Shown piece by piece: positions 15,835-59,895 of a DNA stretch of 64,000 nt. A program made the position numbers and the translations under genes. This DNA comes from an uncultured Acidobacteriota bacterium (GTDB taxonomy: Bacteria; Acidobacteriota; Thermoanaerobaculia; Gp7-AA8). The DNA is taken from positions 224,001 to 288,000 of the forward strand of contig CAVUKB010000006.1 in assembly GCA_963741955.1 (NCBI GenBank), in the 5' to 3' direction. A model generated the notes under the pieces. It was not told the DNA's origin. It was given only the letters and a program-made list of their open reading frames with translations, and did not search any database. Position 1 is the first letter of the stretch. Every line of letters starts with the position of its first letter.

Positions 15835-15858
15835 AATTCGTACCAAGATGGTACTGTT
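15835..15858. promoter_or_regulatory. Inverted repeat GTACCA-AGA-TGGTAC upstream of rrf2-suf, probable Rrf2 operator
   Basis: Perfect 6-3-6 palindrome at 15840-15854, about 45 bp before the rrf2 ATG. Confidence 0.55.
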
Positions 15859-15897
15859 TCTGCCCCTGCCACGCAGGGCGATGAAAGTGACGGTTCG

Positions 15898-16383: not shown

Positions 16384-16386
16384 ACC

Positions 16387-17823: not shown

Positions 17824-17939
17824 TTCAGGCCGGCCTCGAATCCCTTCGCCTCTCCGGAATCGGAACGCACCCACGACTCACCGCAGCGAGTCGACACGAA
17901 ACGAGAAACACGAGAAACGTCGGAAGGAAACGCAGTCGA

Positions 17940-18701
<762 letters not shown>

Positions 18702-18702
18702 G

Positions 18703-21769: not shown

Positions 21770-21788
21770 CTCATCTTGGGGGAAACGT

Positions 21789-43464: not shown

Positions 43465-43547
43465 CAATGAGGAGAACCAGACGGCAGACGGCGCGATTTC
43501 GTCCAGGGTTCGCCTTGACTGCATCGATCCACCGGATCGATGATTCA

Positions 43548-44924
43548 ATGATGAGATCCCTCGTTCCGGCTCTCCTTCTGCTCTTTGCAACGACCGCGGC
43601 GGGACAGCAGTCCATTCAGCCCTCTCTTTCGATCTGGCCTGCTGCTCCCAGCACCAGGGACGCAGTGGCGGTCGATCTACGGGTCGCGCTGAGCGAGTGT
43701 GTCCCTCCAACACGTGACGTATCGATGGAGGGGACGGAGATCACGATCACCCTGCACAGTCGGGGCGGTCTCTGTCCGCCGCCGGCGGGAGGGCTGATCT
43801 ACGCAACCCATATCGCAGTCGGCCCGCTGAAGGCCGGGCATTATGGAGTTCGCGCGGTGATGGCTGGATCGGAACTGATCGTTCGCGAGTTCAACGTGGC
43901 GCCGGCGGCGGTGATCACCTCGATCGAACCGAGGAATGCAACGGTTGCGGGTGGAGCTCCAGTGACGATCAGGGGCATGAACCTTTATCAGGATCCCATC
44001 TGTGGGCCCTTTCCCGGGCCCTGCGCGACGACCACGGTCGCGTTCGGATCCACGGATGTGCCGGTGGTATCGCACTCGAGTGATGCGATCGTGGTCCAGG
44101 CGCCTCCGCACGCAGCGGGAGTGGTGGACCTGACCGTGTACCGCACCGACGGCCGGACCGCAACGGAGGAGCGCGGGTTTCTGTTCGGAGATCGTGCGCT
44201 CGAAAAATGGCTGATCCCCGTGAGCGTGCCGGACGTGGTCGACGGCGCACTCGGCTCTCGATGGGTGACTGAGCTCGAGCTCTCGAACCGAGCGTCGGTG
44301 CCCGCTCTATTCTTCGTCCCTTCGAGCTTTGACCTCGAACCATCTGGGCTCGGCCAGTACACGAATCTCTCCCCCGGCGAGATTTTCGCCACCCCGCCGA
44401 TGCCGAGGTTTCCCGGTGGCGGTGCGTTCGTGTACGTCGATCCGATTGCCGCGCGGTCGCTGGCGAGATCTCTGAGAGTGAGGGATCTCTCGGTCGATGC
44501 CCGTGCCTTCGCGGCGCCCGTGCCGATCGTGTCTGAGCGCGAGGGATTTATCGGCTCTCTGTTGTTTCTCGGCGTACCGACGGACCCGCAGTACCGGATC
44601 AACGTCCGCCTCTACGACTTCGCGGGCGAATTGGGTCACGACTTCTATGTCGAGACGAGGAGTGTATCCGGCCAGCGGCTGGGAATCTTTCACGGATTGA
44701 CCTCTCGAAACGACGCGGAGACCGATCCGCCGCGATGGCCCGGATACGGCGAAGTGGATGATCTCGCGTCCAGGCTTCCCGCCATCCGAAAAGAGAATCG
44801 AGTCGACGTTGTAGTCGGCTCGAGCCACATGCGGAGATGGTGGGCGATGTTGACGATCACGGACAATCGGACCCAGCAGGTGACGATCGTGACGCCGTCC
44901 GGAACCGACTTAGGGGCGAACTGA
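43548..44924 (+). CDS. Secreted IPT/TIG domain protein
   Basis: Signal peptide, ITSIEP..GGAPVTIRG.N, APPHAAGVVD, GALGSRWVTEL, DNRTQQVT. Confidence 0.8.
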   Translation: MMRSLVPALLLLFATTAAGQQSIQPSLSIWPAAPSTRDAVAVDLRVALSECVPPTRDVSMEGTEITITLHSRGGLCPPPAGGLIYATHIAVGPLKAGHYGVRAVMAGSELIVREFNVAPAAVITSIEPRNATVAGGAPVTIRGMNLYQDPICGPFPGPCATTTVAFGSTDVPVVSHSSDAIVVQAPPHAAGVVDLTVYRTDGRTATEERGFLFGDRALEKWLIPVSVPDVVDGALGSRWVTELELSNRASVPALFFVPSSFDLEPSGLGQYTNLSPGEIFATPPMPRFPGGGAFVYVDPIAARSLARSLRVRDLSVDARAFAAPVPIVSEREGFIGSLLFLGVPTDPQYRINVRLYDFAGELGHDFYVETRSVSGQRLGIFHGLTSRNDAETDPPRWPGYGEVDDLASRLPAIRKENRVDVVVGSSHMRRWWAMLTITDNRTQQVTIVTPSGTDLGAN

Positions 44925-46229: not shown

Positions 46230-47186
46230 ATGCACGTCGTCATCCCGGACGATTATCAGGACGCGGTGAGGAGCCTCGCGTGTTTTGCGAAGCTCGCACC
46301 CCACCGGGTCACGATATTCAACGACTCGGTCAGCGCCGCGGCGGACCTCGCCGGCCGTTTCGCCGAAGCCGATGCGCTGATCCTCATCCGTGAGAGGACC
46401 TGCGTCACTGCAGATCTCCTTTCGAGACTGCCCCGGCTGAGACTGATCAGTCAGACGGGTCGAGGGACCTCACACATCGACGTGGAGGAATGCACGCGAC
46501 GCGGCATCACGGTGTGTGCCGGCACGGGTTCTCCGTGGGCTCCGGCCGAGCTCACCTGGGCTCTGGTTCTCGCAGCCTCGCGTGGAGTGGCGCGCGAAGC
46601 GGACGCGCTGCACCAGGGACAATGGCAGACATCGCTCGGACGGACCGTCCGGGGACGGACGCTAGGAATCTGGGGATACGGAAAGATCGGAAGTCTCGTC
46701 GCGAGTTTCGGTCGTGCCTTCGGAATGGACGTTCTCGCCTGGGGACGCGAAGGATCGAGAACGCGGAGTCTGGCCGACGGCTGCCGCTTCGCCGCGTCGC
46801 GCGAGGAGCTTTTCGACTCGTCGGACGTCCTGTCGCTTCACGCGCGGCTCACACCCGAGACGCGCGGCATCGTGACCTCCGACGATCTCTCGCGGATGAA
46901 AGCCGACGCGCTTCTGGTGAACACGGCTCGGGCGGAACTGATCGAGCCGGGAGCGCTGGTCCGTGCTCTCCGCGCGGGACGTCCGGGATTCGCCGCGCTC
47001 GACGTGTACGACGAAGAGCCTCTGCCCGACCGCAATCCTCTCCTGAAAATGAAGAACGTCCTCTGCACGCCGCATCTCGGCTACGTCGAGCGTGACAGCT
47101 ACGAGCTCTACTTCGGGCAGGCGTTCGACCAGGTACTCGCATTCGCGGCAGGAGAACCGATCAACGTGGTGAATCCTGCCAGATGA
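46230..47186 (+). CDS. D-2-hydroxyacid dehydrogenase family protein
   Basis: IRERT, GYGKIG, VNTARA, DVYDEEP, TPHLGY. Confidence 0.93.
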   Translation: MHVVIPDDYQDAVRSLACFAKLAPHRVTIFNDSVSAAADLAGRFAEADALILIRERTCVTADLLSRLPRLRLISQTGRGTSHIDVEECTRRGITVCAGTGSPWAPAELTWALVLAASRGVAREADALHQGQWQTSLGRTVRGRTLGIWGYGKIGSLVASFGRAFGMDVLAWGREGSRTRSLADGCRFAASREELFDSSDVLSLHARLTPETRGIVTSDDLSRMKADALLVNTARAELIEPGALVRALRAGRPGFAALDVYDEEPLPDRNPLLKMKNVLCTPHLGYVERDSYELYFGQAFDQVLAFAAGEPINVVNPAR

Positions 47187-47202
47187 ACCGGGAGTCTGCG
47201 TG

Positions 47203-47260
47203 GTAGCCCGGATCATTCACGGGATTTCGTCGCGAGGAGTGCAAGGCGGGCCTGGATGCA
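47203..47260 (+). repeat. Left arm of hairpin element family B
   Basis: TAGCCCGGATCATTCACGGGATTTCGTCGCGAGGAGTGCAAGGCGGGCCTGGATGCA. Confidence 0.7.
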
Positions 47261-47427
47261 CGCGAGACTCGGGATGGATCTGAACCGCTGATCCACCTTC
47301 GCTGGAGGACTGCTTCTACCACGCAGGCCCTGAGGGTCAGATCTTCAGTTACGAGAAGCGGCGCGCCGGGCCGATTCGGGTCGACTCGATTCTGCCCGCC
47401 GGACCTCGATTCGAAACAGCCCGGAGA

Positions 47428-47922
47428 TCACGGCGTGCCGGAGTCGTCCGCCTTCGGCTTCAATGTCCGGATATACTGCACGAGCTCACCGATCTCACGC
47501 TGGCTCAACGTCGGACTCCATGGAGGCATCTCGGCGGAGAGTCCCGCCGCGCCTCCTCCCGTCGAGATCACCGCGACGAGATCATCGTCGGTATGGGAGC
47601 TCTGAAAGGAAGGATCCCCAAGGTCCTGAGGTTTCGGATCGAGGTTGTAAGAATTGAATCCATCTCCATGACCTTCGGTTCCATGGCAGACCTCGCAGTA
47701 ATGCCCGAAGAGCACGTGCCCTTCACGGGTGCGGTACGGAAGGTCCGGCTGCGGCAGCGGGGACCGGGCCGCCATGCCGGCGCTCGGCTCGACCGCGCTC
47801 GTGGTCTCTCTGGAACATCCCATGACTGCAAGAAGACCGAGCGCGATCGTGATGACGACGGTGATGACGATCCCGCGATCTCCACGCGGGAAGGACGAAG
47901 CGAGTCCCATGCAGTGTTTCAC
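47428..47922 (-). CDS. Monoheme class I cytochrome c, membrane/lipid anchored
   Basis: CEVCH, G.G.GDG, distal MPPW; hydrophobic N-terminus ending VMGC; GTG start overlaps the upstream stop. Confidence 0.88.
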   Translation of the reverse strand: MKHCMGLASSFPRGDRGIVITVVITIALGLLAVMGCSRETTSAVEPSAGMAARSPLPQPDLPYRTREGHVLFGHYCEVCHGTEGHGDGFNSYNLDPKPQDLGDPSFQSSHTDDDLVAVISTGGGAAGLSAEMPPWSPTLSQREIGELVQYIRTLKPKADDSGTP

Positions 47923-49943
47923 GGCTGACCTCCCGTGGCGGTTCCTGCCGCAGGGGGCTTCGCGGAGAGCAGGTAGGCGGCGAGGTCCGTGGCATCGGCA
48001 TCGCTCAGCTTGAAGTTCGGACATCTCACGTCAGCCCTCCACCGCTGCGGTCCGCCGAGCCACCACGCAATCCATCCGGATTTCAGTTTCTGTGGTGCGT
48101 CATCGAGTGGCGGCCCCACGTATCCACCCCGCCCTTCCACCTGGTGACAGCTCTGGCAGGCGTAACGTTCGAAGAAGAGCTTCCGTCCGCGAGCTGCTTC
48201 GTCCGCCGGTACGCCACCCGGAAAGATCTCGCCCGGGATGTCATTGCGGACGAAGACGTTCTCGATGAAACTGGCGATGAACTGCGCTTCCTCGGGCGGC
48301 ATCTTCAACGGAATCATCCGATCGGTGAGAATCGGGCGGATCGTGGTCGGCAGCAGAAGATATTGCTCGAGCCATTTCCGCTGGACCTTGCTCCCTTCCC
48401 AGGTCAATGGTGCCGTCGAAATGTCCCCTCCGACTCCCTCGATCTGGTGACACGACATACAGCGATAGCGGTCGAGGAGTTGCCCGAACCTTCCTGGAGG
48501 TACGTAATGGCTCTTCGTCGCTTCGACGCGGAGCGGTTCGGGGATCGAGCTGCCGGAGTAGGAGAGGAGCGCCGTCACCAGCGTCTCAACCTGATGCCCA
48601 TCGAACCCGAACTCGGGCATCTTCAGCCCGTGGCGGAACGAGCGCGGCTTCGACACCTTCGCCGCGAGCCACTCCGGAAGACCACGGGGGATATCGGTCC
48701 GATCGCCGAAATCGAGCCGGTCGGTCGGCTTGGCGCCGATGCCGGTCAGGTCGGGTCCGATCTTTCCGTTCTCGTATTTCCCCCCGATCGCGTGGCATCC
48801 GCCACATCCGTACTTGCGGAACAGCGACTCTCCATCATTCACGAGACTCAGAGGCGGCCGGAACGAGGCCGCGCTTCGAGTCGGAACAGTCGTGTCCGTG
48901 AGGTCGTCCATCATGTATTGAGTCAGGTCGATCAGATCCTGGCGGCTGAAATCGTACTGAGGCATGGCGGTCGCAGGCTGAAACGCGTGCGGGTCTGCGA
49001 TGAACGCTGCGAGCCAGGAGCGGTCGACCTTCGAGCCGATGGCTCCGAGTTCCGGCGCACTTCCGTTTCCGCGGCCTCCAATCGTGTGGCAGGAGATGCA
49101 GCGCGACTCACGGAAGAGTGCCTTGCCGTGATCGAAGTCGCCTGGGGGGAGGTTCCGGTACTCGTCGGGAATGGCTTCCTTCGCCGGACGGGTCCAGAGA
49201 TACGCCACCAGAGATTCGATCTCGTTCTTCTGCAGGTGAAAGTTCGGCATCAGCGTCTGCGGCCGCAGCGCTCTCGGATTTGCGAGCCACGCACTCAGCC
49301 ACTCCGGAAAGGTCTGATCCGCCAGACCGTCGAGGTCGGGAGCGGCGCTCTTCCACACGTCATGTCCCTTCAGGTCGTGACATGCGAAACAGCCAGCCCG
49401 CCGCATCAGCGCGCGTCCCTCGGAGAGCATGGATGCCTGGGGAACGCGGTCACCTTCGTGGCAGGTCCCACAGGAAGCTTCCGTATAGCGGATCGGAAGG
49501 ATCGGAGACGACCAGTCCGAAACGCTGCCGTGCGCTTCCGCGACGGTCGTCGCCCGCCCCTGTCCGCGGTGGCATGCGACGCAACCAAAACGCGACTGAT
49601 CGTCCGGCATGTGTGGAACCGCGGGATGGCTCCGGAACGGCTGAGGAGCGCCGGCCATAGAAGCTTCGTCAACCCCCAGATGACAGCTGGTGCAGCGGTC
49701 GACCCGATTCCCGAAATCCGGAATCCAGATCTGCCGGACGTGAACGGTCTCGCTCCTCGCCTTCTTCAACTCCTTCTGCGAGCCTGCCGATGCGAGGAGC
49801 CGCTGCTGATAAGCCTTCTGATAATGCCGGTACTCACTGAAAGCGTCTTTGATCGGCGAGATCGCGAGTACGAGCAGAAACGCGACGCTCGAGATCGCGA
49901 ACCAGATCCAGAGTCGATCGGATGAATGGTCGGTTCGAGGCAT
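47919..49943 (-). CDS. Multiheme cytochrome c (8 CxxCH), N-terminal TM anchor
   Basis: CTSCH, CVACH, CGTCH, CFACH, CISCH, CGGCH, CMSCH, CQSCH; ATG 49943 overlaps the subunit IV stop (TGATG). Confidence 0.92.
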   Translation of the reverse strand: MPRTDHSSDRLWIWFAISSVAFLLVLAISPIKDAFSEYRHYQKAYQQRLLASAGSQKELKKARSETVHVRQIWIPDFGNRVDRCTSCHLGVDEASMAGAPQPFRSHPAVPHMPDDQSRFGCVACHRGQGRATTVAEAHGSVSDWSSPILPIRYTEASCGTCHEGDRVPQASMLSEGRALMRRAGCFACHDLKGHDVWKSAAPDLDGLADQTFPEWLSAWLANPRALRPQTLMPNFHLQKNEIESLVAYLWTRPAKEAIPDEYRNLPPGDFDHGKALFRESRCISCHTIGGRGNGSAPELGAIGSKVDRSWLAAFIADPHAFQPATAMPQYDFSRQDLIDLTQYMMDDLTDTTVPTRSAASFRPPLSLVNDGESLFRKYGCGGCHAIGGKYENGKIGPDLTGIGAKPTDRLDFGDRTDIPRGLPEWLAAKVSKPRSFRHGLKMPEFGFDGHQVETLVTALLSYSGSSIPEPLRVEATKSHYVPPGRFGQLLDRYRCMSCHQIEGVGGDISTAPLTWEGSKVQRKWLEQYLLLPTTIRPILTDRMIPLKMPPEEAQFIASFIENVFVRNDIPGEIFPGGVPADEAARGRKLFFERYACQSCHQVEGRGGYVGPPLDDAPQKLKSGWIAWWLGGPQRWRADVRCPNFKLSDADATDLAAYLLSAKPPAAGTATGGQP

Positions 49944-50638
49944 CAATAGACTCCTTGCCACGGCCACACCCAGCTCCAGCCCGGGCCACGGAAAAGGACA
50001 CCAATCAGTGTCAGGACCACCGCGACCACTACGAACCAGGTCATGATCCAGTCCGCCAGAGGAATGTGGCCGAGAACGCTCCGTACTCTCGAGGGGAGCG
50101 TGGGAATCGCGGGGAGCAGCATGAGGAGATATATCGCGACGGTGGGAACCACCACCGGCCATACCTGTTTGAGCGCGAGAACCGCGACGAGGGCGGCCGT
50201 CACGATCGAAATCAGCACCAGAGGCATTTTCCATGGGCGCTCGTAGAGCCCGATCAGATCCACGTTCACCCGGAAGAACGGGATGATGACGAGAGCGAAC
50301 ACCACGCAGGTCGGAATGAGAATTCCAGCGACGATCGGCGGGAAGTAGTGGAGCAGCTCCTGCAGTCCGAGAAAGTACCACGCCGCCTTGGCGGGGTTGG
50401 GGGTGTGGTACGGATCGGCGATCCCTTCGAGCGGAGCGTTCACCAGAAGAGAGATGATCGCCAGTGCGATGACGATGACCTCGATGAGAATGATCTCGCG
50501 CAGCAGCAGATGCGGGGCCGTCGTCACCACTTCGTCGCGGTCCTCGAGAAGCCTCGCGGGAACTTCGCGCCGCACCAGGGCAACCCTCTTCGGCGTCCTG
50601 GCGGCGTTGCTCGACGATTCGATCTCGAGCTTGCTCAT
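49943..50638 (-). CDS. Cytochrome b6 subunit IV-like (cytochrome b C-terminal part)
   Basis: [29 protein letters not shown] followed by multiple TM helices. Confidence 0.85.
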
Positions 50639-51384
50639 TGTGCCTCCTCCGCGATCCGATGCTTTCTTCCGCTGGACCCGGCCACCCCACCATCCTTGCG
50701 AACTCTCCAGAGATGAACCGCCAGTGCTCCGAACAGCGCGATCGGAAGGAGTACACAATGGAGTACGTAGAAACGGAGCAGCGCATTCGGTCCTACGATG
50801 TTTCCACCGAGAAGCACGAAACGGAGTTTCGGCCCGAGCAGCGGCATCGCGTTCGCCATGTTCGTTCCCACCGAGACGCCCCAGAACGCGAGCTGATCCC
50901 AGGGGAGAAGATAGCCGGTGTAGCTCAGCAGGAGAGTGAGGAGAAACAGAATCACCCCGACCATCCAGTTCAGCTCACGAGGTGGACGGAACGCGCGGTG
51001 ATAGAACGTCCGCAGAAGATGGAGAAAGACGACCAGCACCAGCCCGTGGGCCGCCCACCGATGCATGTTGCGGAGAAAAACGCCGTTCCCGACGACGAAC
51101 CGGAGCTCCTTCATGTCGTCATACGCCTGCGGGACGGAGGGATGGTAGTAGAGCATCAGCAGGATCCCGGTGCCGACCAGGACACCGAGAAGGACCAGCG
51201 CCGTCCCTCCGAGATAGTAGGTGCTCGAGAACTCGAGATTACGACGCCGTGTTTTCGCCGAATGGAGATGCAGGAAGACGTTCTCCATCACCAGCTGCAC
51301 GCGGTTCCGGTTCGTCGGCTCGACGCCGTGCCGCACGGCCGCGCGCCACAAACGGCTGCGTATGATCGAATCGAGAATACTCAT
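50635..51384 (-). CDS. Cytochrome b6-like (cytochrome b N-terminal part)
   Basis: [43 protein letters not shown]-x14-H. Confidence 0.93.
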
Positions 51385-51393
51385 CGTCTCTCC

Positions 51394-51918
51394 TCAAAGC
51401 TTGACGACCGTCCCTTCGGGAACTTCGACGCCGGTATCGACCTCGATGTCTCCTTTGGAATCGAGATCGATCTGAAACCACGGCAGGGGTCGTGGTGCGG
51501 GCCCTCCGATCACGTCCCCGTCGAGCGAATAGCGACTGCCGTGACAGGGGCAGGCGATGACGTTTTCGTCGACCTTGTATCGGGTGATGCAGCCGAGATG
51601 AGTGCAGACGGAGGAAAGGGCGTGAAAACCTTCCTTCTGCCGGATCACGTAGGCCCGGTACACTTCGTTCGTCACCACTGCGCCGACATCGATTGCGTCG
51701 GGTGGACCGAGGGTGAACTCCGTCGGCGGCTCGAAGAGGACGCGGGGTTTGAGGAAGTCGACGGAGAGTGCCGCCGCACCTCCTGCAGCAGCCGCACACG
51801 CAGCAACGCCGGTCACCTGAAAGAATCGCCGTCTCGACAGATGGATCTTCCTGATTCGCGCTTCATCCCGTTCTTCCGGATCATGTTCGCCTGGGCGCTT
51901 GCTGGTCGGGTCAGGCAC
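51394..51918 (-). CDS. Rieske [2Fe-2S] protein with Tat signal
   Basis: SRRRFF, CTHLGC, CPCHGSRY, GPAPRPL. Confidence 0.95.
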   Translation of the reverse strand: MPDPTSKRPGEHDPEERDEARIRKIHLSRRRFFQVTGVAACAAAAGGAAALSVDFLKPRVLFEPPTEFTLGPPDAIDVGAVVTNEVYRAYVIRQKEGFHALSSVCTHLGCITRYKVDENVIACPCHGSRYSLDGDVIGGPAPRPLPWFQIDLDSKGDIEVDTGVEVPEGTVVKL

Positions 51919-53782
51919 TCGAAGCCTCCTTCAACAGAAACTGCTGCATAGTGATGGTTCCGGTCGGGCATCGCTCGGCGCAGAGTCCGCAACGGATACA
52001 GATCGTTTCGTCCTTGATCAGCACCGTCCCGATCGGCTTCGAATCGAAGAAGATCGATGCGGAGTCGCCAAGCTCTGCGATCACCTCGTCGCGCATTGAC
52101 GGATCGACCGCGATCTCCGCCGCCGGAACGAGCTCGATGCACTGCTCGGGACAAACGTCGGCACAACCTCCGCACAGAACGCATTCGGTCCCGAGCTCGT
52201 GATCTTCCTCGAAGACCGTGTTGATCCAGCAACGAAGACATCGGCTCCCCTCCCGTCTCGCTGAGAGCTCCGGCATGCATCTCTCCACTTCGGCGATGCC
52301 AACGCGGCGATCGATGGGAAGGGTTGGAGGCTTCTGCCGAGGGATACCCTCGTAGTCGAACTCCCTGCGGAATCCACGCAACGGCTCGATCAGAACTTCG
52401 ATCTCCTGGTCCGGAGTCGCGCCCCCTCGCAGCCACTCGTGAATCGATCTCGCCGCGCGCCGTCCGTCCGCGATCGCGGTGATCGCGATGCGCGGTCCGA
52501 ATGCCACGTCGCCGCCGGCGTAGATTCCCGGCGCGGTTGTCGCGAGGGTTTCCGGATCGACCTGAATCGTTCCCCGTCGCGTCACTTCGATCCCGTCCTC
52601 CGGCGAGAGGAACGTCAGATCGCTCGCCTGTCCGATGGCGAGAATGACGGTGTCGGCGGCCAGAGAGAGCTCCGTTTCCTCGATCACCTTCGGATTGAAA
52701 CGTCCATCCGAATCGAATACCGACGCGCACTCCAGAGTCTCGATTCCGGTCACTCTCCCCGCACTACCGAGAACTCGCTTGAGCGACCGGCGGGGGTGAA
52801 ACGTCACGCCTTCTTTCCGGGCCTGCTCGATCTCTTCCCGGTCTGCGGGCATCTCGTCCATCGATTCGAGCGAGACGACGTGGATCTCCTTCGCGCCGAA
52901 GCGAACCGCCGAGCGTGCGACGTCGAGCGCAGTGACGATGTTGATGTCGGGTGAGGGGATCGTGTCCGGCGACGCGGTCCTGACCGCCGAGCGTGCCACG
53001 TCGAGCGCGACATTGCCTCCGCCCAGCACCACCACGCGGCGGCCGATGTCGACCCGGTATCCCATGTTCACATTGAGGAGGAAGTCGACCCCCTTCAGGA
53101 CCCCGTCGAGATCGGTGCCGGGGACTTCCAGCGAGCGGCCCTTGTGTGCACCGATGGCGAGGAAGACCGAACGGAATCCCTCCTCGCGAAGGCCCGCCAG
53201 CGAGTAGTCGCGGCCAAGCCGCTGGTTGATGCGGAGCTCGACCCCGAGGCTGAGGATCGCGTTGATCTCGAGCTTGATCAGCTCACGCGGAAGGCGGTAC
53301 TCGGGGATTCCGAGGCGGAGCATTCCGCCCGCGACCGCCTGGGCCTCGAAGATGGTGACCGGATAGCCCAGGAGCGCGAGATCATGGGCTGCGGCGAGAC
53401 CGGCAGGACCGGCGCCGATGATGGCGATCCGATCAAGCGGGTAGCGCATCTCGCGTTTGCCGTAGATCTCCTTGAGCATGTCGAGATCGATCATGCTTTC
53501 CACACCGAATCGCTCGGTGACGAAGCGTTTGAGCGCGCGGATTGCAACCGGCTCGTCGAGCTCTCCACGCCTGCAGGCCGCCTCGCATGGCGCCGCACAG
53601 ATCCGGCCGCAAATGGAGGCGAGCGGATTCGGCTTGCGGGCGACCGCGTACGCCTCGCGATAGCGTCCTTCCGCGATGAGCGAAACGTAGCGACCCGCTT
53701 CCGTGCCCACCGGGCAGGCCGAGTGACAGGGAAAGTTGCTCTCCAGCCACTCGCGATTGACCCTGGTCCGGTTCATGTCCAT
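51911..53782 (-). CDS. FAD-dependent NAD(P) oxidoreductase (GltD/NfnB-like) with C-terminal 2x[4Fe-4S] ferredoxin domain
   Basis: CHSACP, CGRICAAPCEAAC, GAGPAG, GIPEYRLP, GGGNVA, AGGD, CLRC, CVLCGGCADVCP, CIRCGLCAERCP. Confidence 0.92.
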   Translation of the reverse strand: MDMNRTRVNREWLESNFPCHSACPVGTEAGRYVSLIAEGRYREAYAVARKPNPLASICGRICAAPCEAACRRGELDEPVAIRALKRFVTERFGVESMIDLDMLKEIYGKREMRYPLDRIAIIGAGPAGLAAAHDLALLGYPVTIFEAQAVAGGMLRLGIPEYRLPRELIKLEINAILSLGVELRINQRLGRDYSLAGLREEGFRSVFLAIGAHKGRSLEVPGTDLDGVLKGVDFLLNVNMGYRVDIGRRVVVLGGGNVALDVARSAVRTASPDTIPSPDINIVTALDVARSAVRFGAKEIHVVSLESMDEMPADREEIEQARKEGVTFHPRRSLKRVLGSAGRVTGIETLECASVFDSDGRFNPKVIEETELSLAADTVILAIGQASDLTFLSPEDGIEVTRRGTIQVDPETLATTAPGIYAGGDVAFGPRIAITAIADGRRAARSIHEWLRGGATPDQEIEVLIEPLRGFRREFDYEGIPRQKPPTLPIDRRVGIAEVERCMPELSARREGSRCLRCWINTVFEEDHELGTECVLCGGCADVCPEQCIELVPAAEIAVDPSMRDEVIAELGDSASIFFDSKPIGTVLIKDETICIRCGLCAERCPTGTITMQQFLLKEASSA

Positions 53783-53801
53783 CTCTTCCCCGGCTCGCCG
53801 T

Positions 53802-54383
53802 CTACTTGGAGAGCTCGAAATCGAGCTCTGTCTTACCCGAGACTTTCACCGGTCTGGATGTTTGTTTCAGCTTCGGATGCCAGACTTCGACGGTGTATTG
53901 ACCATCGGGAAGGTCCTTGATGGTGTAGCTGCCATCGCTGGCGGTGACCGCGTAATAGGACGTGGGGAGCGCCAGGATATAGGCTTCCATCTCGGGATGC
54001 ACCGCGCACAGCAGCGTCGCCATGCATTGCCGTTTGAACGTGTAACTGCGGGTCTGACCCTTCGGCCAGCTCCCGAGATTGAAACGATCGGCACACTTGT
54101 CGGGAGAGAAGACGTTGTGGAGAAACGGATCGTCGTTGAGGAAGTCGACCGTCGTGCCGACGACGACCGGGAGAACGTGCGGAACGAAGGACATGTCCTT
54201 CTGATTCATGACCGGATGATTCGCAGGCGGCGTGAAGGTCTTTCCTGGAATGGCGTCGATGTAGACCACTGCGTCGGCTGAGTTCCGCAGCCCCTTCGCC
54301 ACCACTTTTCCGTGCAGATCGCCTGCAACCAGTGGCGCAGCCACCATGGCTGCTACAGCAATCAAGAGCGTGAATCTTTTCAT
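53802..54383 (-). CDS. Exported cupredoxin-like protein with carboxypeptidase-regulatory-like beta segments
   Basis: Signal peptide, FVPHVL, F.N.D..HNVFS, CAVHPEM (type-1 Cu ligands H..C-x2-H-x2-M), G.YTV.VWHP. Confidence 0.8.
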   Translation of the reverse strand: MKRFTLLIAVAAMVAAPLVAGDLHGKVVAKGLRNSADAVVYIDAIPGKTFTPPANHPVMNQKDMSFVPHVLPVVVGTTVDFLNDDPFLHNVFSPDKCADRFNLGSWPKGQTRSYTFKRQCMATLLCAVHPEMEAYILALPTSYYAVTASDGSYTIKDLPDGQYTVEVWHPKLKQTSRPVKVSGKTELDFELSK

Positions 54384-54411
54384 GATCTGACTCCCTTCAT
54401 GTGAACGGCTT

Positions 54412-55830
54412 TCAGAATGCGTAACGGAGGACGGTCGACAGCTGATAGTTCTTCGATTCGTTCAGGTCGCGGCGGTATTCGAGCATCCCTTTCACGTTCG
54501 CATAGGCGAAGTAGCTGAAGCTCGCGTTGAGGAAGCGGAGCGAATCGACGGAGCGGTCGCCCGGCTTGAGGCTTTCGTACCGGAGCGAGGTCTGAAACAC
54601 CGGAGTGATCACGTAATCGGCTTGCACGAACCATGTGTCGTATGTCGGCTCGTTCCGTGAGAGAAGGCTGCCGTCGTCCGCGAACGCGTCGATCGTGTCA
54701 CGACCATTCATCGCGACTCCGAACACGTTCAGGTCGTCGAACCACCATGACGCATAGAGACCAGCACGTGAAAACGTCCGGTCCTGAAGATTGGCCGGCA
54801 TCTCGTCGGCCATCATTCCCATGCCGCTATCGACGGGAAAGTCGATTCCCTTGCCGTTTCCCTGGTATCCGAGGATGCCGACCCGAAGCGAGCGCTCACG
54901 CCAGTTCTGGGGCGGGAGATTGACGCCGGTCGTGTCGCCGTCCAGTCCCATCCCTCCGAACTTGTAGTCGGCACGAGCGTAGAAATCCTTCGAGGCATTT
55001 CCGTCGGCGGTTCCGTCGCCCGGCCCGAGGCCATTCGTGATTCCCGCGGTGTAGAAGAATCGATGGTGTGCGACTCCGTACATCTCGATGCCTTCCACCA
55101 TCATCGGCAGGCTGATTCCGCCCATGTCTTCGGACAGACCAGTGCCGCCCGCGACCCCGATCGGGTTGTAGGAGAAGAGCGTGTCGATCGCGTTGTCCGT
55201 GGAGATCCACATCTCCTGAAAACCGTCTGCGAGATCCGGCGCGAACTTCCCGATCTTGAAGTTCACCATGTGCTCCGGACCGAACGGTGAATTGAAGTGG
55301 AGCTCGGCGTGCTCGATCTCGGTTCCCGTCTCGCCTGCATCCTGCGCCCAGGTCATCTCACCGAAGAAGCTCATGTGGTCGCCCATGGTTCCGGCGGAGA
55401 ATAGATTGACTTCCTGGGGGAACTGAAAGTCGTTCTTGACCACGGTCCGTCCGGTATCGTCGACGGAAGAGAGATAGATGCTGGCCATCTTGATGTTCAT
55501 CGCCAGCGGAACATTGCCGGGGATGTCGCTCGGATAGATCATCTTCGGCCACATCCGCTTGTAGGCGTCGGATCCGAGGCTCGTTTGCGGAACCTTCACC
55601 TGAGCTTCCGTCTCGTTCGGAAAGCGGTATCCGTTCAGCCGGAATGCTTCGCCGAACGCGTTGAGCTTCGGGAATCCGACGTGGCAGGTCTGGCACGATG
55701 TCTTGTACTTCCTCGCGAAGACCGGGACGGCGAAGGCCGGCAGGGAGCCGGCCAGCATGGCCGCCAGAGCGAGAAGTACCGCCCCGAAACCAATCGGATG
55801 TCGCGGTCTTTTCCCGGGTACTTCGTTCAT
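54412..55830 (-). CDS. Cyc2-like fused monoheme cytochrome c / outer-membrane beta-barrel
   Basis: Signal peptide then AVPVFARKYKTSCQTCHVGFPKLNAFGEAFRLNGY; amphipathic beta strands and terminal Phe (LRYAF); RBS AAGGAG. Confidence 0.8.
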   Translation of the reverse strand: MNEVPGKRPRHPIGFGAVLLALAAMLAGSLPAFAVPVFARKYKTSCQTCHVGFPKLNAFGEAFRLNGYRFPNETEAQVKVPQTSLGSDAYKRMWPKMIYPSDIPGNVPLAMNIKMASIYLSSVDDTGRTVVKNDFQFPQEVNLFSAGTMGDHMSFFGEMTWAQDAGETGTEIEHAELHFNSPFGPEHMVNFKIGKFAPDLADGFQEMWISTDNAIDTLFSYNPIGVAGGTGLSEDMGGISLPMMVEGIEMYGVAHHRFFYTAGITNGLGPGDGTADGNASKDFYARADYKFGGMGLDGDTTGVNLPPQNWRERSLRVGILGYQGNGKGIDFPVDSGMGMMADEMPANLQDRTFSRAGLYASWWFDDLNVFGVAMNGRDTIDAFADDGSLLSRNEPTYDTWFVQADYVITPVFQTSLRYESLKPGDRSVDSLRFLNASFSYFAYANVKGMLEYRRDLNESKNYQLSTVLRYAF

Positions 55831-56001
55831 CGCGGATCTCCTTCCTCGAATGTTTCTCTTTCCATGCATCGAGGTTAGGAGTCGCGGTGACCGTTTGGAA
55901 TCGGCCGCATACCTCATTCGAGTGATGCAAATGCATTATTTCGATGTGGATCTGGAAGTCTGCGCGGTAGAAACGTCTGTAGCGAGAAAGCGGAGCAAGG
56001 G

Positions 56002-56646
56002 TCAGATGAGGCGGTGGCGGAGTGCGATCGACACGGCTTCGAGTTTGCTGTGGACGTCGAGCTTGTGAAGGACGTTCTGCACGTGGTTGCGTACGGTCGC
56101 GACGCTGATGAAGAGCGTGTCCGCGATGGCCTGGCTGCTTGCGCCGTCCGCCACGAGACGGAGTACCTCGAGCTCCCGGGTGCTCAGGTTGTAGGTCTTC
56201 TCCTCGGGCGGATGCTCTGACGTCGAGGCGCGCGTGATCTCGAGAAGCGTCTCGATGGTATGCCGGTCGATCCGATCTTCCGCCTCGAGGCGCTGCAGCA
56301 GATGGATCATGGTGAACTGCGAGCTTCGGGGCCCCGGAATCACGATGATCGAGATGCCAACCCGAACCGGTTCGCCCGGTGATCCGCGGACATCCATCTC
56401 GAACCGGCGGATTGCCTCGTGACGCCGCGCCATCTGAGTCAGAATGCAGTGTTCGTCGCAGAAGCGGTTGCCGAAGAGGTCCTTTCCGCAGAGGATCTCG
56501 TGGCATGGCCGGCCGAGGACATCTGCCGCCTCGTAGCCGAGGAGGCGTTCGGCGGCACGGTTCCAGATGACGATGCGTCCCTCCTCGTCGGTGCCGAACG
56601 CGGCGTCCGCGGTGCTGCTGACGACTTCGAGCGGATCGATCGTCAC
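56002..56646 (-). CDS. PAS plus LuxR-type HTH regulator
   Basis: D.EGRIVIWNRAAERLLGY (PAS), LSTRELEVLRLVADG..IA..LFIS..TVRNHV..KL (LuxR HTH). Confidence 0.92.
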   Translation of the reverse strand: MTIDPLEVVSSTADAAFGTDEEGRIVIWNRAAERLLGYEAADVLGRPCHEILCGKDLFGNRFCDEHCILTQMARRHEAIRRFEMDVRGSPGEPVRVGISIIVIPGPRSSQFTMIHLLQRLEAEDRIDRHTIETLLEITRASTSEHPPEEKTYNLSTRELEVLRLVADGASSQAIADTLFISVATVRNHVQNVLHKLDVHSKLEAVSIALRHRLI

Positions 56647-56913
56647 TTCCCTGCCATGGTCGCGAGCTCACCCCGCGACTCCACCGACGAGCCGCCGCGA
56701 TGAGCTCGGATTTTCCCGGTACTTCTACCGTAGACCTCCCGAGCGAGCCCGTCCACTTACAAAACCGTCAGGCGCGGAAGGAGTGCCTGAGTCCGCCACA
56801 CAGACCGAATCAGCCCGGACCGTGAATGGTCCGCGTTAGTGGGTGTGAAGACGGCGTTCACCCGAATAGGCGAAGTCGACAGTACCTCGAGGAGCGAAAG
56901 TGCGGTCTGACGC

Positions 56914-56963
56914 CGCAGACACGCCCGGATCGCGCTCCGCAGTAGAAGTCCCGTGAATGATCC
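56914..56963 (+). repeat. Right arm of hairpin element family B
   Basis: GCAGACACGCCCGGATCGCGCTCCGCAGTAGAAGTCCCGTGAATGATCC is complementary to the left arm at 47209-47258. Confidence 0.7.
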
Positions 56964-57029
56964 CCGGTCCGGGTCGATGACGGTCCCGTCAGTTCGACAT
57001 GGGTCAGGTCTGAAGTTTCCCTCTTTCGA

Positions 57030-57058
57030 TTGAAGCAGAGGGTCACGAAGCGTATAAC
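57030..57058 (+). promoter_or_regulatory. Sigma-70-type promoter
   Basis: TTGAAG-N17-TATAAC, 35 bp upstream of GTG 57094. Confidence 0.6.
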
Positions 57059-57093
57059 TGAATGCTCATCGCGCCAAGATTGGAGGCCTACCC

Positions 57094-59895
57094 GTGCACA
57101 AACGCTCCTGCATCATTCTGTTACTGTTCGTATTTTCCGTCGGCTCCCTTTATGCCCAGACGCTCCAGGAAGGGAAGTGGATGCAGCTTCCCGGGATGAA
57201 GCTGAAGGGGATGGTGACGCGCGACGCGAACGGAATCGCGCACGTCACAGCCCTCGACACCTGGGATCTCTTCTATCTCCAGGGATACGTCGAGGCGACC
57301 GATCGCTTCTTCCAGATGGATTTCAACCGGAAGGTGGCGAGTGGCCGTCTGGCCGAGATCCTCGGCAGTGCTGCGCTGTCCAACGACGTACAGCTGCGGA
57401 CGCTCGGCCTGCGCCGCGCCGCCGAAGCTTCGCTCGATGTCGCGTCGCCGGAAGCGAAAGACGTCCTGGAAGCCTTCTCCGCCGGAGTGAATCAGTGGCT
57501 CTCGACCCACGCTCTTCCTTCGGAATACGGCCTGCTGCACATCACGAAGTCGGAGCCGTGGTCGCCGGCGGACACGCTGGCCATCGCCAAGCTCCTGGCG
57601 TTCAATCTCGCATTCGATCTCGGAGACATCGACCGGACGGTGGCGCTTCTGACGTACGAAGGCGCGGGTAAGGTCGTCGGGTTCAACGGCGATGCTCTCT
57701 TCTTCGAGGACCTGTTCCGCACTGCGCCGTTCAGCGACGCGGCAACGATGCCCGACGCCGGAGTGCAGCCGCCGTGGGTTCAGGCTCCCGCAACGAACGC
57801 AACACACCGGCTGCGTGCTTCGAAGCGAACCCACGGAGTCACGACCGCTTTCCGCGATTCCGACTCGACCCTGAATCTCGCGCGCGAATACGCGGCGAAG
57901 GTGCGGAACCTTCCTTCGTTCCGCGCGGCATTCGAGAGAGAGAAGCACCCCGGATCCAACGAGTGGGGCATCGCCGGATCGCTGAGTTCGAGCGGCAACG
58001 CACTCCTCGCGAACGATCCTCACCTCTCGCTCGGAACTCCCTCGACGTTCTATCCGATCTACCTTCAGGGAGGCGGGTACGACGTCGCGGGTGAGACCTT
58101 CGCCGGAGCTCCTGCGATCATCCTCGGTCACAATCAGCAGATCGAGTGGGGCGAAACGACGAACTTCTCCGACGTGACCGACGTCTATCAGGAACAGCTC
58201 GTTCCGGATCCTTCGTCGCCGTCGGGTTACAGCTCCATCTACCAGGGAAAGAAGGAACCGGTCGTCCCCATCCCCGAGACGTTCAAGATGAATGCGATGT
58301 CGGGGAGCTCGGACGACATCGTGACGGTCCCGTCGAGTGGCGACGTTCCTCCGGTGACACTCGTCGTTCCGCGGCATGGCCCGATCGTGCAGCTCGATAC
58401 CTCGACCGGCGAGGCGCTCTCGGTCCAGTTCACCGGCCTCTATCCGACGCACGAGATCGAAGCGTTCATCGGAATCGACAAGGCGACGAATCTCGACGAG
58501 TTCCAGAAGGGACTCCAGTATTTCGACTTCGGCTCGCAGAATTTCGCATACGCGGACCGCGCGGGGCACCTCGGGTACTTCACCGCGGGTGAAGTGCCCA
58601 TCCGTGAAGATCTTCAGGCGATGAGCGTCAACGGCGCGCCTCCGATGTTCATCCGTGACGGCATGGGCGGCAACGAATGGATGCCGGTACAGAACCAGCA
58701 GCCGGGACAGGCGATCCCCTACGAGATTCTTCCCGCCAGCGAGATGCCGCACCTCATCGACCCGCCGAACGGATTCTTCGTCAACGCCAACAACGACCCC
58801 ACCGGGGCGACGCTCGACAACAACTCCCTCAATCAGATTCGAGCGGGCGGAGGACTCTACTACTTCGGCCCCGGCTTCGACGGGTTCCGTGCCGGACGCA
58901 TCACACAGCTGATCCAGCAGAAGATCGATGCCGGAGAGAAGTTCGACCTCGACACGCTGAAGAGAATGCAGGCGGACACGGTGCTTCTCGATGCGGAGTA
59001 CTTCGTTCCGAAGATCCTCCAGGCGTGGCAAAAAGCGTCGGCTTCCACCGATCCGGCACTGGCGCAGTTCGCGGCGAACCCGGTGATCTCCGCCGCGATC
59101 CAGCGGCTGCAGGGATGGAATTACGCGACTCCGACCGGCATCCCGCAGGGATATGACGGCACGCCTCTTCCCCCGGACTACAAGACGCGGGACGCGAGCG
59201 TCGCCGCGACGCTCTACACCGCATGGAGAAGCCGTCTGATCGCGAACACCATCGACGCCGTCCTCGACGCCGGAGGCCTGCCGCGTCCCGACAGCGGACT
59301 CACACTCACCGCGCTCGAGCACATCTTCGACGTCTTCGATCAACAGGGAGGTGTCGGTGCGTCGGGCATCAACTTCTTCAACGTGGACGGCGTTTCCAGC
59401 GCTGCGGACCGCCGCGACATCATCGTTCTCGCCAGCCTCGGCGAAGCGATGCAGACGCTCTCCAGCGCGGAATTCGCTCCCGCGTTCGGCGAATCGACCA
59501 ACCTCGACGACTACGAATGGGGAAAGCTCCACCGCCTCTCCCTCGCTCACGTCATGGGATGGCCATTCTCCATTCCAATGGAGTTCGGCTCGTTCCCACC
59601 GCCACTCCCGGGACTCCCGGGCATTCCGGTCGACGGCGGTTTCGAGACCGTCGACGCGTCCTCTTTCAACGTGCGAAATCTTTCGCTCAATGGCTACATG
59701 TACGGAAGCGGTCCGGCGCGTCGCTTCGTCGGCGAAGCCGCCGCGTCAGGAATCAATGCGCAATCGAGTCTCCCGGGAGGAGTGAGCGGAATTCATGGCA
59801 ATCCTCTCTCGACGAATCTCCTCGTGCAGTGGCTGAAGAACGAGACCTACGACCAGTCGCTTCCGCCGGCGTTCTCGCTGCCGTGGATGCCGTAA
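57094..59895 (+). CDS. Penicillin acylase family (Ntn-hydrolase, S45), secreted
   Basis: RDANGIAHV, QGYV.A.DRFFQMD, catalytic PG|SNEW, LANDPHL, NANND, SLPGGVSG. Confidence 0.93.
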   Translation: MHKRSCIILLLFVFSVGSLYAQTLQEGKWMQLPGMKLKGMVTRDANGIAHVTALDTWDLFYLQGYVEATDRFFQMDFNRKVASGRLAEILGSAALSNDVQLRTLGLRRAAEASLDVASPEAKDVLEAFSAGVNQWLSTHALPSEYGLLHITKSEPWSPADTLAIAKLLAFNLAFDLGDIDRTVALLTYEGAGKVVGFNGDALFFEDLFRTAPFSDAATMPDAGVQPPWVQAPATNATHRLRASKRTHGVTTAFRDSDSTLNLAREYAAKVRNLPSFRAAFEREKHPGSNEWGIAGSLSSSGNALLANDPHLSLGTPSTFYPIYLQGGGYDVAGETFAGAPAIILGHNQQIEWGETTNFSDVTDVYQEQLVPDPSSPSGYSSIYQGKKEPVVPIPETFKMNAMSGSSDDIVTVPSSGDVPPVTLVVPRHGPIVQLDTSTGEALSVQFTGLYPTHEIEAFIGIDKATNLDEFQKGLQYFDFGSQNFAYADRAGHLGYFTAGEVPIREDLQAMSVNGAPPMFIRDGMGGNEWMPVQNQQPGQAIPYEILPASEMPHLIDPPNGFFVNANNDPTGATLDNNSLNQIRAGGGLYYFGPGFDGFRAGRITQLIQQKIDAGEKFDLDTLKRMQADTVLLDAEYFVPKILQAWQKASASTDPALAQFAANPVISAAIQRLQGWNYATPTGIPQGYDGTPLPPDYKTRDASVAATLYTAWRSRLIANTIDAVLDAGGLPRPDSGLTLTALEHIFDVFDQQGGVGASGINFFNVDGVSSAADRRDIIVLASLGEAMQTLSSAEFAPAFGESTNLDDYEWGKLHRLSLAHVMGWPFSIPMEFGSFPPPLPGLPGIPVDGGFETVDASSFNVRNLSLNGYMYGSGPARRFVGEAAASGINAQSSLPGGVSGIHGNPLSTNLLVQWLKNETYDQSLPPAFSLPWMP

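Follow-up and report, generated by a model that had tools for sequence, protein, structure and literature searches.

The window, a stretch of 64,000 nucleotides (nt) from an uncultured Acidobacteriota bacterium (contig CAVUKB010000006.1 of GenBank assembly GCA_963741955.1), carries at positions 47428-56646 nine minus-strand genes, namely one for a PAS-LuxR regulator and eight that are packed closely together or overlap. The products of this eight-gene operon include a Cyc2-family haem-porin, a blue-copper protein, two c-type cytochromes, a Rieske/cytochrome b core and an NAD(P)-binding flavoprotein. The preliminary description of this DNA had interpreted them as an electron conduit from the outer membrane to nicotinamide adenine dinucleotide (phosphate), NAD(P)(H), and this interpretation is supported by the sequences and predicted folds reported below. 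Our tentative conclusion, to which we give a probability of roughly 45%, is that the eight genes would specify one envelope-spanning electron-transfer chain, run as forward quinol oxidation with electrons passed outward.

The features of the region, as derived from the list of open reading frames (ORFs) and an analysis of start codons, are the following (lengths in amino acids, aa; FAD, flavin adenine dinucleotide; Fe-S, iron-sulfur):

56002-56646, minus strand: one-component PAS-LuxR regulator, PAS domain N-terminal and LuxR/GerE helix-turn-helix C-terminal, 214 aa; Pfam GerE 67 bits, PAS_9 45 bits
55831-56001, minus strand: intergenic region of 171 nt ahead of the porin gene, presumed promoter/operator
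54412-55830, minus strand: haem-porin, Cyc2-family fused monohaem cytochrome-porin as judged by motif and predicted fold, 472 aa
53802-54383, minus strand: cupredoxin with a C-terminal CarboxypepD_reg-like beta-sandwich, 193 aa, with signal peptide
51911-53782, minus strand: GltD/NfnB-like NAD(P)-binding FAD/Fe-S flavoprotein, 623 aa; Pyr_redox_2, Fer4_20, Fer4_7
51394-51918, minus strand: Rieske [2Fe-2S] subunit with a twin-arginine leader, 174 aa; Pfam Rieske 48.8 bits
50635-51384, minus strand: four-helix cytochrome b6-type subunit, 249 aa; Pfam Cytochrome_B 144.6 bits
49943-50638, minus strand: subunit IV-like membrane protein, 231 aa; Pfam Cytochrom_B_C 27.3 bits
47919-49943, minus strand: membrane-anchored octahaem cytochrome c, 674 aa; eight CXXCH motifs
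47428-47922, minus strand: monohaem class-I cytochrome c, probably a lipoprotein, 164 aa; one CXXCH motif; GTG start at 47922

The positions obtained for the eight tightly packed genes and for the PAS-LuxR gene that precedes them are the same as those first described, and Pfam families match the labels of all but the porin and the cupredoxin. Gaps of 171, 28, 19 and 9 nt lie between the LuxR and porin genes, the porin and cupredoxin genes, the cupredoxin and GltD-like genes, and the Rieske and cytochrome b6 genes, respectively. The GltD-like and Rieske genes overlap by 8 nt, those for cytochrome b6 and subunit IV by 4 nt, those for subunit IV and the multihaem cytochrome c by 1 nt, and the two cytochrome c genes by 4 nt. 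For the monohaem cytochrome c, the GTG at 47922 was chosen as the start codon because of a GGGAGG sequence upstream and the 4-nt overlap, with the ATG at 47910 as an alternative. CXXCH motifs number one in the porin, eight in the multihaem cytochrome c and one in the monohaem cytochrome c. The genes flanking the operon are unrelated to it: those at one end encode a DNA ligase and a 2-hydroxyacid dehydrogenase, and those at the other end encode a penicillin amidase and an OmpW-like protein.

Products of the eight genes and their regulator

The haem-porin has no match to any Pfam or NCBIfam family, and hence its designation as Cyc2-like was checked by motif, fold and conservation instead. The hydrophobic leader ends in AFA at residues 32-34, and the single CXXCH is found at residues 46-50, near the mature N-terminus. 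After the signal peptide, the sequence reads A34-V-P-V-F-A-R-K-Y42, followed by C46QTCH50 and then V-G-F-P54-K-L56. The motif AXPXFAR[Q/K][T/Y] just upstream of a single CXXCH has been reported as unique to Cyc2, with a PXL motif four residues after the CXXCH (Keffer et al. 2021, PMC8406198). Both motifs are present in the window porin, in which three residues separate Tyr42 from Cys46, as compared with the five upstream in the wording of PMC8406198. Cys46, Cys49 and His50 are invariant among 51 diverse members of the family, and Pro54 and Leu56 are nearly so in the porin alignment. Among 77 related loci with a CXXCH-bearing N-terminus, the strict Cyc2 motif together with PXL was found in 50 and a looser form in the other 27.

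The AlphaFold2 model of the porin, built from a 51-sequence alignment, has a predicted local distance difference test score (pLDDT) of 87.1 and a predicted template modelling score (pTM) of 0.84, and includes 16 long strands between residues 109 and 471. A Foldseek search with this model returned 296 matches in the PDB at E<=0.001, the best of which were 16-strand porins including BpsOmp38, OprP and OprO, with a template modelling (TM) score, normalised to the query, of 0.54 for OprP. OprO is the template named for the Cyc2 of Acidithiobacillus ferrooxidans in a recent review (PMC13741234). The Cyc2-like identity originally proposed for the porin is therefore borne out by a motif held unique to Cyc2, a single CXXCH, a PXL motif and a predicted 16-strand barrel.

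The porin family is large, with 2407 clusters at 50% identity matching at E<=0.001. Among 10 cluster representatives of the distant relatives, the only name found was 'hypothetical protein'; the names given to porin relatives in the protein atlas are 'hypothetical protein' and 'Cytochrome C family protein', and the Porin_O_P family is annotated on 20% of one cluster. A Cyc2 from an Acidobacteriota metagenome-assembled genome (MAG) falls in Cluster 3 (PMC9671151), and it is the Cluster 3 homologues whose function was considered the most uncertain (Keffer et al., PMC8406198). The sequence and the model support assignment of the window porin as a Cyc2-family fused cytochrome-porin, and oxidation of Fe(II) by its haem is only putative.

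The product of the second gene scores 20.5 bits with Pfam Copper-bind (PF00127), below the cut-off of 21.2, and 35.8 bits with CarboxypepD_reg, which lies C-terminal to the cupredoxin domain. Many of its close homologues carry a precomputed PF00127 annotation and are named plastocyanin by the Joint Genome Institute (JGI); the protein collection includes at least 3005 members of this family. The AlphaFold2 model (pLDDT 93.2) matched amicyanin, plastocyanin and pseudoazurin in Foldseek at E-values of 1e-5 to 1e-3, with a TM score normalised to the target of about 0.73. The putative copper ligands are retained among 73 sequences (His89 in 97%; Cys126, His129 and Met132 in 99%), and Cys126, His129 and Met132, assigned a ligand role by their position in the motif, are invariant in the cupredoxin alignment. 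The label of cupredoxin given earlier to this protein thus holds despite the sub-threshold Pfam score, owing to the cupredoxin fold and the conserved His-Cys-His-Met set, and a periplasmic type 1 (blue) copper protein of the plastocyanin/amicyanin type is supported by sequence and model as the product of 53802-54383.

In the Rieske subunit, the cluster-binding boxes are CTHLGC and CPCHGSRY, and their Cys and His residues are invariant in 44 orthologues. Its best relative of solved structure is 9rk4 (97.5 bits over 104 residues), followed by 9rk3 (64.5 bits), and the best other Rieske protein scores 63.4 bits. 9rk4 and 9rk3 are Kuste4569 and Kustd1480, respectively, the Rieske subunits of both Kuenenia complexes that bear an NAD(P) oxidoreductase (PMC12954380). 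The parallel with Kuenenia drawn in the preliminary description is hence specific rather than generic, as judged by the 97.5 bits for Kuste4569 compared with 63.4 for the best relative from outside Kuenenia, in a sequence comparison based on two solved Rieske domains. Potentials of +303 mV (Kuste4569) and +335 mV (Kustd1480) were measured for these proteins, and the value of +303 mV was linked to a Ser and a Tyr by the cluster (PMC12954380). Ser128 of the window protein is kept in 43 of the 44 orthologues. Tyr130 of the window protein is shared by 5 of the 44, and the other 39 have Phe at this position.

The cytochrome b6 subunit aligns to b6 of b6f complexes and scores 248 bits with the NCBIfam model ExtP, under the cut-off of 290. 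Its haem histidines, His108, His122, His209 and His224, are invariant among orthologues. Also invariant, in 41-42 orthologues, are Cys210 and the pair His39 and His41, which lie N-terminal to helix A, and these residues might have to do with the additional b haem of the Kuenenia models. In the alignment, Tyr57 takes the place of the FYCLGG Cys that carries haem cN in b6; in this column, no Cys was reported among 43 orthologues (Trp in 27, Gly in 8, Ala in 5, gaps in 2 and one residue unlisted). Subunit IV scores 49 bits with ExtQ, under the cut-off of 150.

The octahaem cytochrome c begins with a hydrophobic helix and contains four closely spaced N-terminal haems followed by four class-I domains. 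Pfam Cytochrom_C matches it in four stretches (138.8 bits), with additional Cytochrome_C7 and NrfB-like matches, and the NCBIfam model ExtS gives 112 bits, over the cut-off of 100. The monohaem cytochrome c matches Pfam Cytochrome_CBB3 (42.4 bits) and has a hydrophobic leader ending in VMGC.

The flavoprotein matches Pfam Pyr_redox_2 (114 bits), Fer4_20 (64 bits) and Fer4_7 (34 bits), and NCBIfam PRK12771 with 460 bits, under the cut-off of 516. It has an N-terminal domain for two [4Fe-4S] clusters and a C-terminal ferredoxin domain for two more, and its relatives of solved structure include NfnA (9n5u), NfnI and GltD; it also resembles NfnB. As a signal peptide is absent, the protein is expected to be cytoplasmic. 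An insertion of about 20 residues in the NAD(P)-binding domain (window 52915-53000, residues about 262-290) is flanked by repeated A-x-DVAR-x-A-x-R segments. Since this insertion is present in all 13 orthologues shown, it is a mark of the subfamily and not a local duplication.

The LuxR gene adjoins the porin gene in 31 of the 74 loci whose upstream sequence is long enough to show it, and in 19 of the 33 such loci with the full operon. Within the PAS domain, Cys48, Cys63, Cys67 and His115 are invariant in 32 sequences (that of the window and 31 from loci in which a copy lies directly upstream). These residues resemble a cofactor site, for instance for a metal or an Fe-S cluster, and suggest redox or metal sensing; the regulator would probably switch the operon in response to redox or metal cues. 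The upstream region of the porin gene includes a perfect inverted repeat, ATGCA-TT-TGCAT, at 55925-55936 in an AT-richer stretch about 95 nt upstream of the start codon. This repeat was found in 0 of 79 related upstream regions, and no control site shared among them was found. The most shared upstream 8-mers were considered as an operator and rejected, as they resemble the coding sequence of the neighbouring gene, and a consensus scan found no sigma-70-like site in this region. Among the listed sequencing runs, only one of DNA holds the region, and none of RNA was found.

Conservation of the gene order and exchange of the porin gene

A pattern scan of one genome per species identified at least 594 stretches that code for porin relatives, and the best 80 were kept as loci. 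As these are the most similar ones, the counts given here describe close relatives. Long loci, in which the sequence extends for 8.4 kb or more downstream from where the porin gene starts, number 49. All eight genes are colinear in 35 of these, only the porin and cupredoxin genes are present in 12, and other subsets are found in 2. Therefore, the eight-gene arrangement is not due to chance. The cupredoxin gene adjoins the porin gene in 70 of 72 loci, and in two short-form loci that were scanned (L037 and L071) the next gene after it encodes a monohaem cytochrome c. Pairwise distances between the subunits are correlated (r 0.55-0.92), and this, together with the full gene order in 35 long loci, indicates that the genes are conserved as a unit; a lack of such co-conservation had been named in the preliminary description as a ground for refutation.

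The full operon was found in Thermoanaerobaculia, Vicinamibacteria and Holophagaceae, the last including the cultured Geothrix terrae SG184 and G. oryzisoli SG189 (L036 and L046), and also in single MAGs labelled Betaproteobacteria (L072) and Eisenbacteria (L094). No flanking gene is common to more than 4 of the 35 full loci, and thus the conserved unit ends at the operon. Among 40 relatives of the window genome, a match to the porin was found in 5 of 24 same-family genomes; cytochrome b6 matches are 64-65% identical in two relatives (G018 and G034) and occur as broken pieces at 66-76% in a third (G024). The operon is therefore accessory within the relatives of the window genome.

The porin has a history that differs from that of the genes downstream. 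For the GltD-like protein, cytochrome b6 and octahaem cytochrome c, the nearest locus to the window is L094 (72, 69 and 60% identity, respectively), but the L094 porin is only 32% identical, and the nearest porins are those of L019, L020 and L025 (66-67%). Similarly, in L007, L008, L013 and L094 (10001-18300), the porin is 31-32% identical to that of the window by tblastn, whereas the cupredoxin, and the GltD-like protein where reached, are 59-75% identical; these genes, and those of the Rieske/b core as far as the locus extends, are the closest relatives of the window genes. The porins of L007, L008 and L013 still carry Cyc2-type motifs. Hence, a Cyc2 gene has been replaced by a Cyc2 gene of a different lineage in the same first slot, which argues that this position is functional. 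The label of Candidatus Eisenbacteria for L094 could reflect gene transfer or a binning error, and mis-binning or contamination may likewise account for the Betaproteobacteria label of L072.

The window genome (5.4 Mb, 99% complete) contains three Cyc2-like genes, four cytochrome b loci and three haem-copper oxidases, and no match to RuBisCO was found in it. The second Cyc2-like gene lies in a cluster on contig C7 (L099 7531-13156, ~13.5-19.2 kb) in which four genes follow one another on one strand, namely those for a PRC-barrel protein, the Cyc2-like porin, a Rieske protein and a fused cytochrome, with neither a cupredoxin nor a GltD-like gene. The porin encoded there carries AVPSFTRQT, CHVCH and PEL, and the fused protein of ~1000 aa joins cytochrome b and subunit IV to a c-type portion in which Pfam recognises three cytochrome c stretches. 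The third Cyc2-like gene (L100 7722-9647; C7 ~1.2397-1.2416 Mb) encodes 397 aa with ALPAFARRE, CQMCH and PEL, and is followed by a gene for a monohaem cytochrome c. One of the three haem-copper oxidase genes (C7:1223408-1224736) is ~15 kb away from it.

Elsewhere in the window, a SUF-type operon for the assembly of Fe-S clusters at 15808-22334 includes genes for an Rrf2-family regulator, SufB/D, a SufC-like ABC ATPase, a cysteine desulfurase, a NifU-like scaffold and an FeS_assembly_P protein. A sigma-54-dependent activator of 1352 aa is encoded at 7156-11214, and its first ~1000 residues have no Pfam match at E<=1e-8. A fragment-sized exosortase (EpsH-like) ORF is found at 38459-38959 and a gene for a VWA/Big_7 protein at 42061-43713; several ORFs around them have no Pfam family, and the gene models in this part are rough.

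Proposed electron route and its alternatives

From the gene content, family signatures, folds, ligand conservation and synteny established above, we infer the protein contacts, cofactor loading, substrates and direction of flow as follows. At the outer membrane, the Cyc2-family haem-porin would exchange single electrons with extracellular iron, and perhaps with manganese oxides or humic quinones, and in the periplasm the blue-copper protein and the monohaem cytochrome c would serve as electron shuttles. In the inner membrane, the Rieske/cytochrome b6/subunit IV core and the anchored octahaem cytochrome c would connect to menaquinol at a P-side quinol site, and at the cytoplasmic face the GltD/NfnB-like FAD/Fe-S protein would link the b haems to NAD(P)(H). 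The high-potential branch would thus run from menaquinol via the Rieske protein, the octahaem cytochrome c, the monohaem cytochrome c or cupredoxin and the Cyc2 haem to an outside oxidant of fairly high potential. The second electron of menaquinol would take a low-potential branch, in which the b haems and the Fe-S clusters lead to FAD, and reduce NAD(P)+, and the NAD(P)H formed could re-enter the chain.

To our knowledge, every Rieske/b complex that has been characterised oxidises quinol, and b6f complexes pass electrons on to cupredoxins of the plastocyanin type. We lean towards outward flow on these grounds, because the genome looks heterotrophic, and because the operon occurs in species of Geothrix. 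The heterotrophic appearance is deduced from the three haem-copper oxidases and the absence of a RuBisCO match, and would imply little need for uphill formation of NAD(P)H. Geothrix is referred to as an electrogen genus (PMC12285243).

Several points weigh against quinol oxidation outward through a single chain. The biochemically tested homologues of Cyc2 named in the cited text are all Fe(II) oxidases, which points to inward flow (PMC8406198, PMC13741234, PMC13692758). A Rieske protein near +300 mV, like a type 1 copper site, fits a chain of high potential and is a poor match for the reduction of Fe(III) oxides at neutral pH, and a heterotroph has no obvious need for NAD(P)H made from quinol. 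The potentials of menaquinone (about -74 mV) and NAD+ (-320 mV) imply, by our own arithmetic, that bifurcation needs an acceptor above about +170 mV, for which the candidates are manganese oxides, Fe(III) in chelated form and, at acid pH, Fe(III) oxides. As the haem-cN Cys is lacking, unlike in the Kuenenia models, electrons may take a different path between haem bN and the flavoprotein. The 12 of 49 long loci with only the porin and cupredoxin genes indicate that the outer pair is not dependent on the Rieske/b complex. A scan of 46800-57200 found 0 promoter-like sites, and 5 terminator-like sites compared with 5.7 expected from shuffled sequences. In addition, a FeGenie-based lake survey gave 0 oxidative extracellular electron transfer (EET) genes for Geothrix MAGs (PMC12285243), and therefore either those MAGs are without the operon or the Cyc2 models used miss this clade.

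The main rival, which we consider somewhat unlikely, is that the same conduit runs inward. Electrons from Fe(II) or another reductant would pass via Cyc2, the cupredoxin and the c haems to the Rieske protein and, joined with an electron from NAD(P)H, would reduce menaquinone (confurcation, the reverse of the Kuenenia proposal), thereby feeding iron electrons to the quinol pool for use in, for example, quinol-dependent nitrate reduction. The Fe(II) oxidase activity of the tested Cyc2 homologues, the haem potentials of which range from -130 to +560 mV, agrees with this (PMC13692758, PMC8406198). Transfer from Fe(II) at neutral pH via the cupredoxin to a Rieske protein of ~+300 mV would be downhill, and the potential-raising Ser and Tyr are kept in the window protein (values from PMC12954380). 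There is also a precedent in Acidithiobacillus, where rusticyanin feeds a bc1 complex that runs in reverse (PMC10654088). By our own arithmetic, reduction of menaquinone by NAD(P)H plus Fe(II) would be mildly exergonic. However, we know of no Rieske/b complex for which confurcation has been demonstrated, and NAD(P)H spent on quinone forfeits proton pumping by complex I. The heterotrophic-looking genome without a RuBisCO match also argues against inward flow, as do its three haem-copper oxidases, which could accept iron electrons directly, and the presence of the operon in Geothrix, called an electrogen genus (PMC12285243).

The chain as a single wire would not exist if the operon joined two modules. 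In this improbable case, the porin, cupredoxin and monohaem cytochrome c would serve any inner-membrane partner, such as terminal oxidases or another bc complex, and the GltD-Rieske/b-octahaem assembly would be a general respiratory enzyme with another periplasmic acceptor. The porin and cupredoxin genes do occur without Rieske/b genes in 12 of the 49 long loci, with the monohaem cytochrome c gene next in L037 and L071, the porin gene has been exchanged without the other genes, and the four cytochrome b loci and three oxidases of the genome offer alternative partners. Furthermore, the gene list for Kuenenia includes an NAD(P)-linked Rieske/b complex without any Cyc2 (PMC12954380). On the other hand, the eight-gene order is kept in 35 of the 49 long loci with no other gene common to the flanks, a Cyc2-type gene holds the first slot even where the porin lineage differs, and the second Cyc2-like gene of the genome directly adjoins another Rieske/bc complex. 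Complexes of the b6f type reduce plastocyanin-type cupredoxins, and the two are canonical partners. It is highly improbable that the haem-porin is not a redox conduit at all and acts as a solute channel or in metal handling (e.g. supply of iron or copper to the complex), with the remainder of the operon forming an ordinary periplasm-facing respiratory complex. The barrel does resemble the diffusion porins OprP, OprO and OmpF, it belongs to no Pfam or NCBIfam family, and the function of Cluster 3 Cyc2 is the most uncertain (Keffer et al., PMC8406198). Against this stand the Cyc2-type motif by the haem site in 77 of 77 CXXCH-bearing N-termini, the invariance of Cys46, Cys49 and His50 in 51 family members, and the oxidation of Fe(II) in vitro by homologues of the same architecture (PMC8406198, PMC13692758).

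Quinol oxidation with outward flow through one chain is the reading towards which we lean. A reversible three-way hub between extracellular iron, menaquinone and NAD(P)(H), with quinone-based bifurcation in one direction and confurcation in the other, may also be considered, although we regard it as rather unlikely. If true, electrons leaving outward would go to a high-potential acceptor and the low-potential electron to NAD(P)+ and then to complex I, giving an extended Q loop with a higher proton yield. In the inward direction, NAD(P)H would lift Fe(II) electrons into menaquinol, and this would provide a mechanism for enzymatic Fe(II) oxidation that depends on an organic co-substrate and is linked to nitrate, a process that has so far lacked one.

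Whether Rieske/b complexes bearing an NAD(P) oxidoreductase bifurcate quinol electrons to NAD(P)+ is a question raised by anammox bacteria, in which it is hard to test. The same core is found here in an operon of the cultured, non-anammox Geothrix terrae SG184 and G. oryzisoli SG189. Should the hub exist, these would be the first genetically approachable hosts for the unproven NAD(P)-reducing mechanism of a Rieske/b complex, with both directions accessible. The operon also names candidate partners, gene by gene, for the Cyc2 family outside the classical iron oxidisers, namely the cupredoxin, the monohaem cytochrome c and the octahaem cytochrome c. The module is widespread in Acidobacteriota of soil, peat and sediment, and, provided that iron or manganese minerals are its redox partners, it is relevant to the part played in the iron cycle of soils by organisms that are generally not regarded as iron bacteria.

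Comparison with known systems

In searches aimed at this combination, which covered passages of the papers, none was found that describes a Cyc2 and a cupredoxin together with an NAD(P)-linked Rieske/b complex as parts of a single unit. Likewise, none was found on Geothrix terrae, G. oryzisoli or G. fermentans with Fe(II) oxidation. One paper, PMC13647500, was considered as a possible description of the operon and rejected, as it concerns a Cyc2 of Thermodesulfovibrionia and its accessible text includes none of the terms 'gene cluster', 'bc1' or 'cupredoxin'. The parts of which the operon is composed are themselves of known kinds.

The inner-membrane part is closest to the complexes of Kuenenia stuttgartiensis encoded by Kuste4569-4574 and Kustd1480-1485 (PMC12954380). 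Shared with these are the Rieske protein, the four-helix b6-type cytochrome b, subunit IV, a cytochrome c with several haems that replaces cytochrome f or c1, and a co-encoded GltD/NfnB-like FAD/Fe-S NAD(P) oxidoreductase, the last two likened by subunit type. The Ser adjacent to the Rieske cluster is kept, as is the Tyr in the window protein. However, the window operon includes no HAO-like octahaem protein, and adds a Cyc2-type haem-porin, a cupredoxin and a monohaem cytochrome c. It also has no Cys at the haem-cN position, whereas haem cN is included in the published AlphaFold3 models of the Kuenenia complexes (PMC12954380). For Kuenenia itself, bifurcation to NAD(P)+ has so far only been proposed (PMC12954380), and the window host is a soil acidobacterium without the anammoxosome of Kuenenia.

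The porin shares with the Cyc2 proteins of A. ferrooxidans, Mariprofundus PV-1, Leptospirillum (Cyt572) and Ghiorsea a signal peptide, AXPXFAR[Q/K][T/Y], one CXXCH, PXL and a 16-strand barrel (PMC8406198, PMC13741234, PMC13692758). The mature N-terminus of Leptospirillum Cyt572, YPGFARKYNF (PMC13741234), resembles VPVFARKYKT in the window, and acidobacterial homologues adjoin Cyt572 in a similarity network (PMC10654088). The Leptospirillum genes are not clustered (PMC10654088), whereas the Cyc2-like gene of the window heads an operon with its presumed partners.

A similar set of parts is known in A. ferrooxidans, in which the rus operon (Cyc2, rusticyanin, Cyc1 and aa3 oxidase) and the pet operon (CycA, SdrA and bc1) together provide an outer-membrane Cyc2, a blue-copper protein, c cytochromes and a Rieske/b complex (PMC10654088), as in the window. 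The pet operon further carries sdrA, described as an accessory subunit of an NADH complex (PMC10654088). However, the parts are spread over two operons in A. ferrooxidans and lie in one in the window. The A. ferrooxidans complex is a classical bc1 with a Qi site, is reversed by the proton-motive force and is without an FAD/Fe-S NAD(P) module. Moreover, the copper protein of the window is amicyanin/plastocyanin-like with an extra beta-sandwich domain, where A. ferrooxidans has rusticyanin.

The extHIJKLMNOPQS cluster of Geobacter sulfurreducens is a precedent for joining an outer-membrane porin and c cytochromes with a Rieske/b core (ExtO, ExtP, ExtQ and ExtS) in one conserved set of genes (PMC5877670). 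The ExtI porin is not fused to a haem domain, and its partners are multihaem cytochromes and a rhodanese-like protein, with no cupredoxin and no NAD(P) flavoprotein in the cluster as presented in the text of that paper. When the window proteins were compared with the Ext equivalog models of NCBIfam, the scores for ExtP and ExtQ fell under the cut-offs and only that for ExtS was over it. As judged by sequence, the window module is therefore related to the Rieske/b module of the Geobacter Ext system but is not an equivalog of it.

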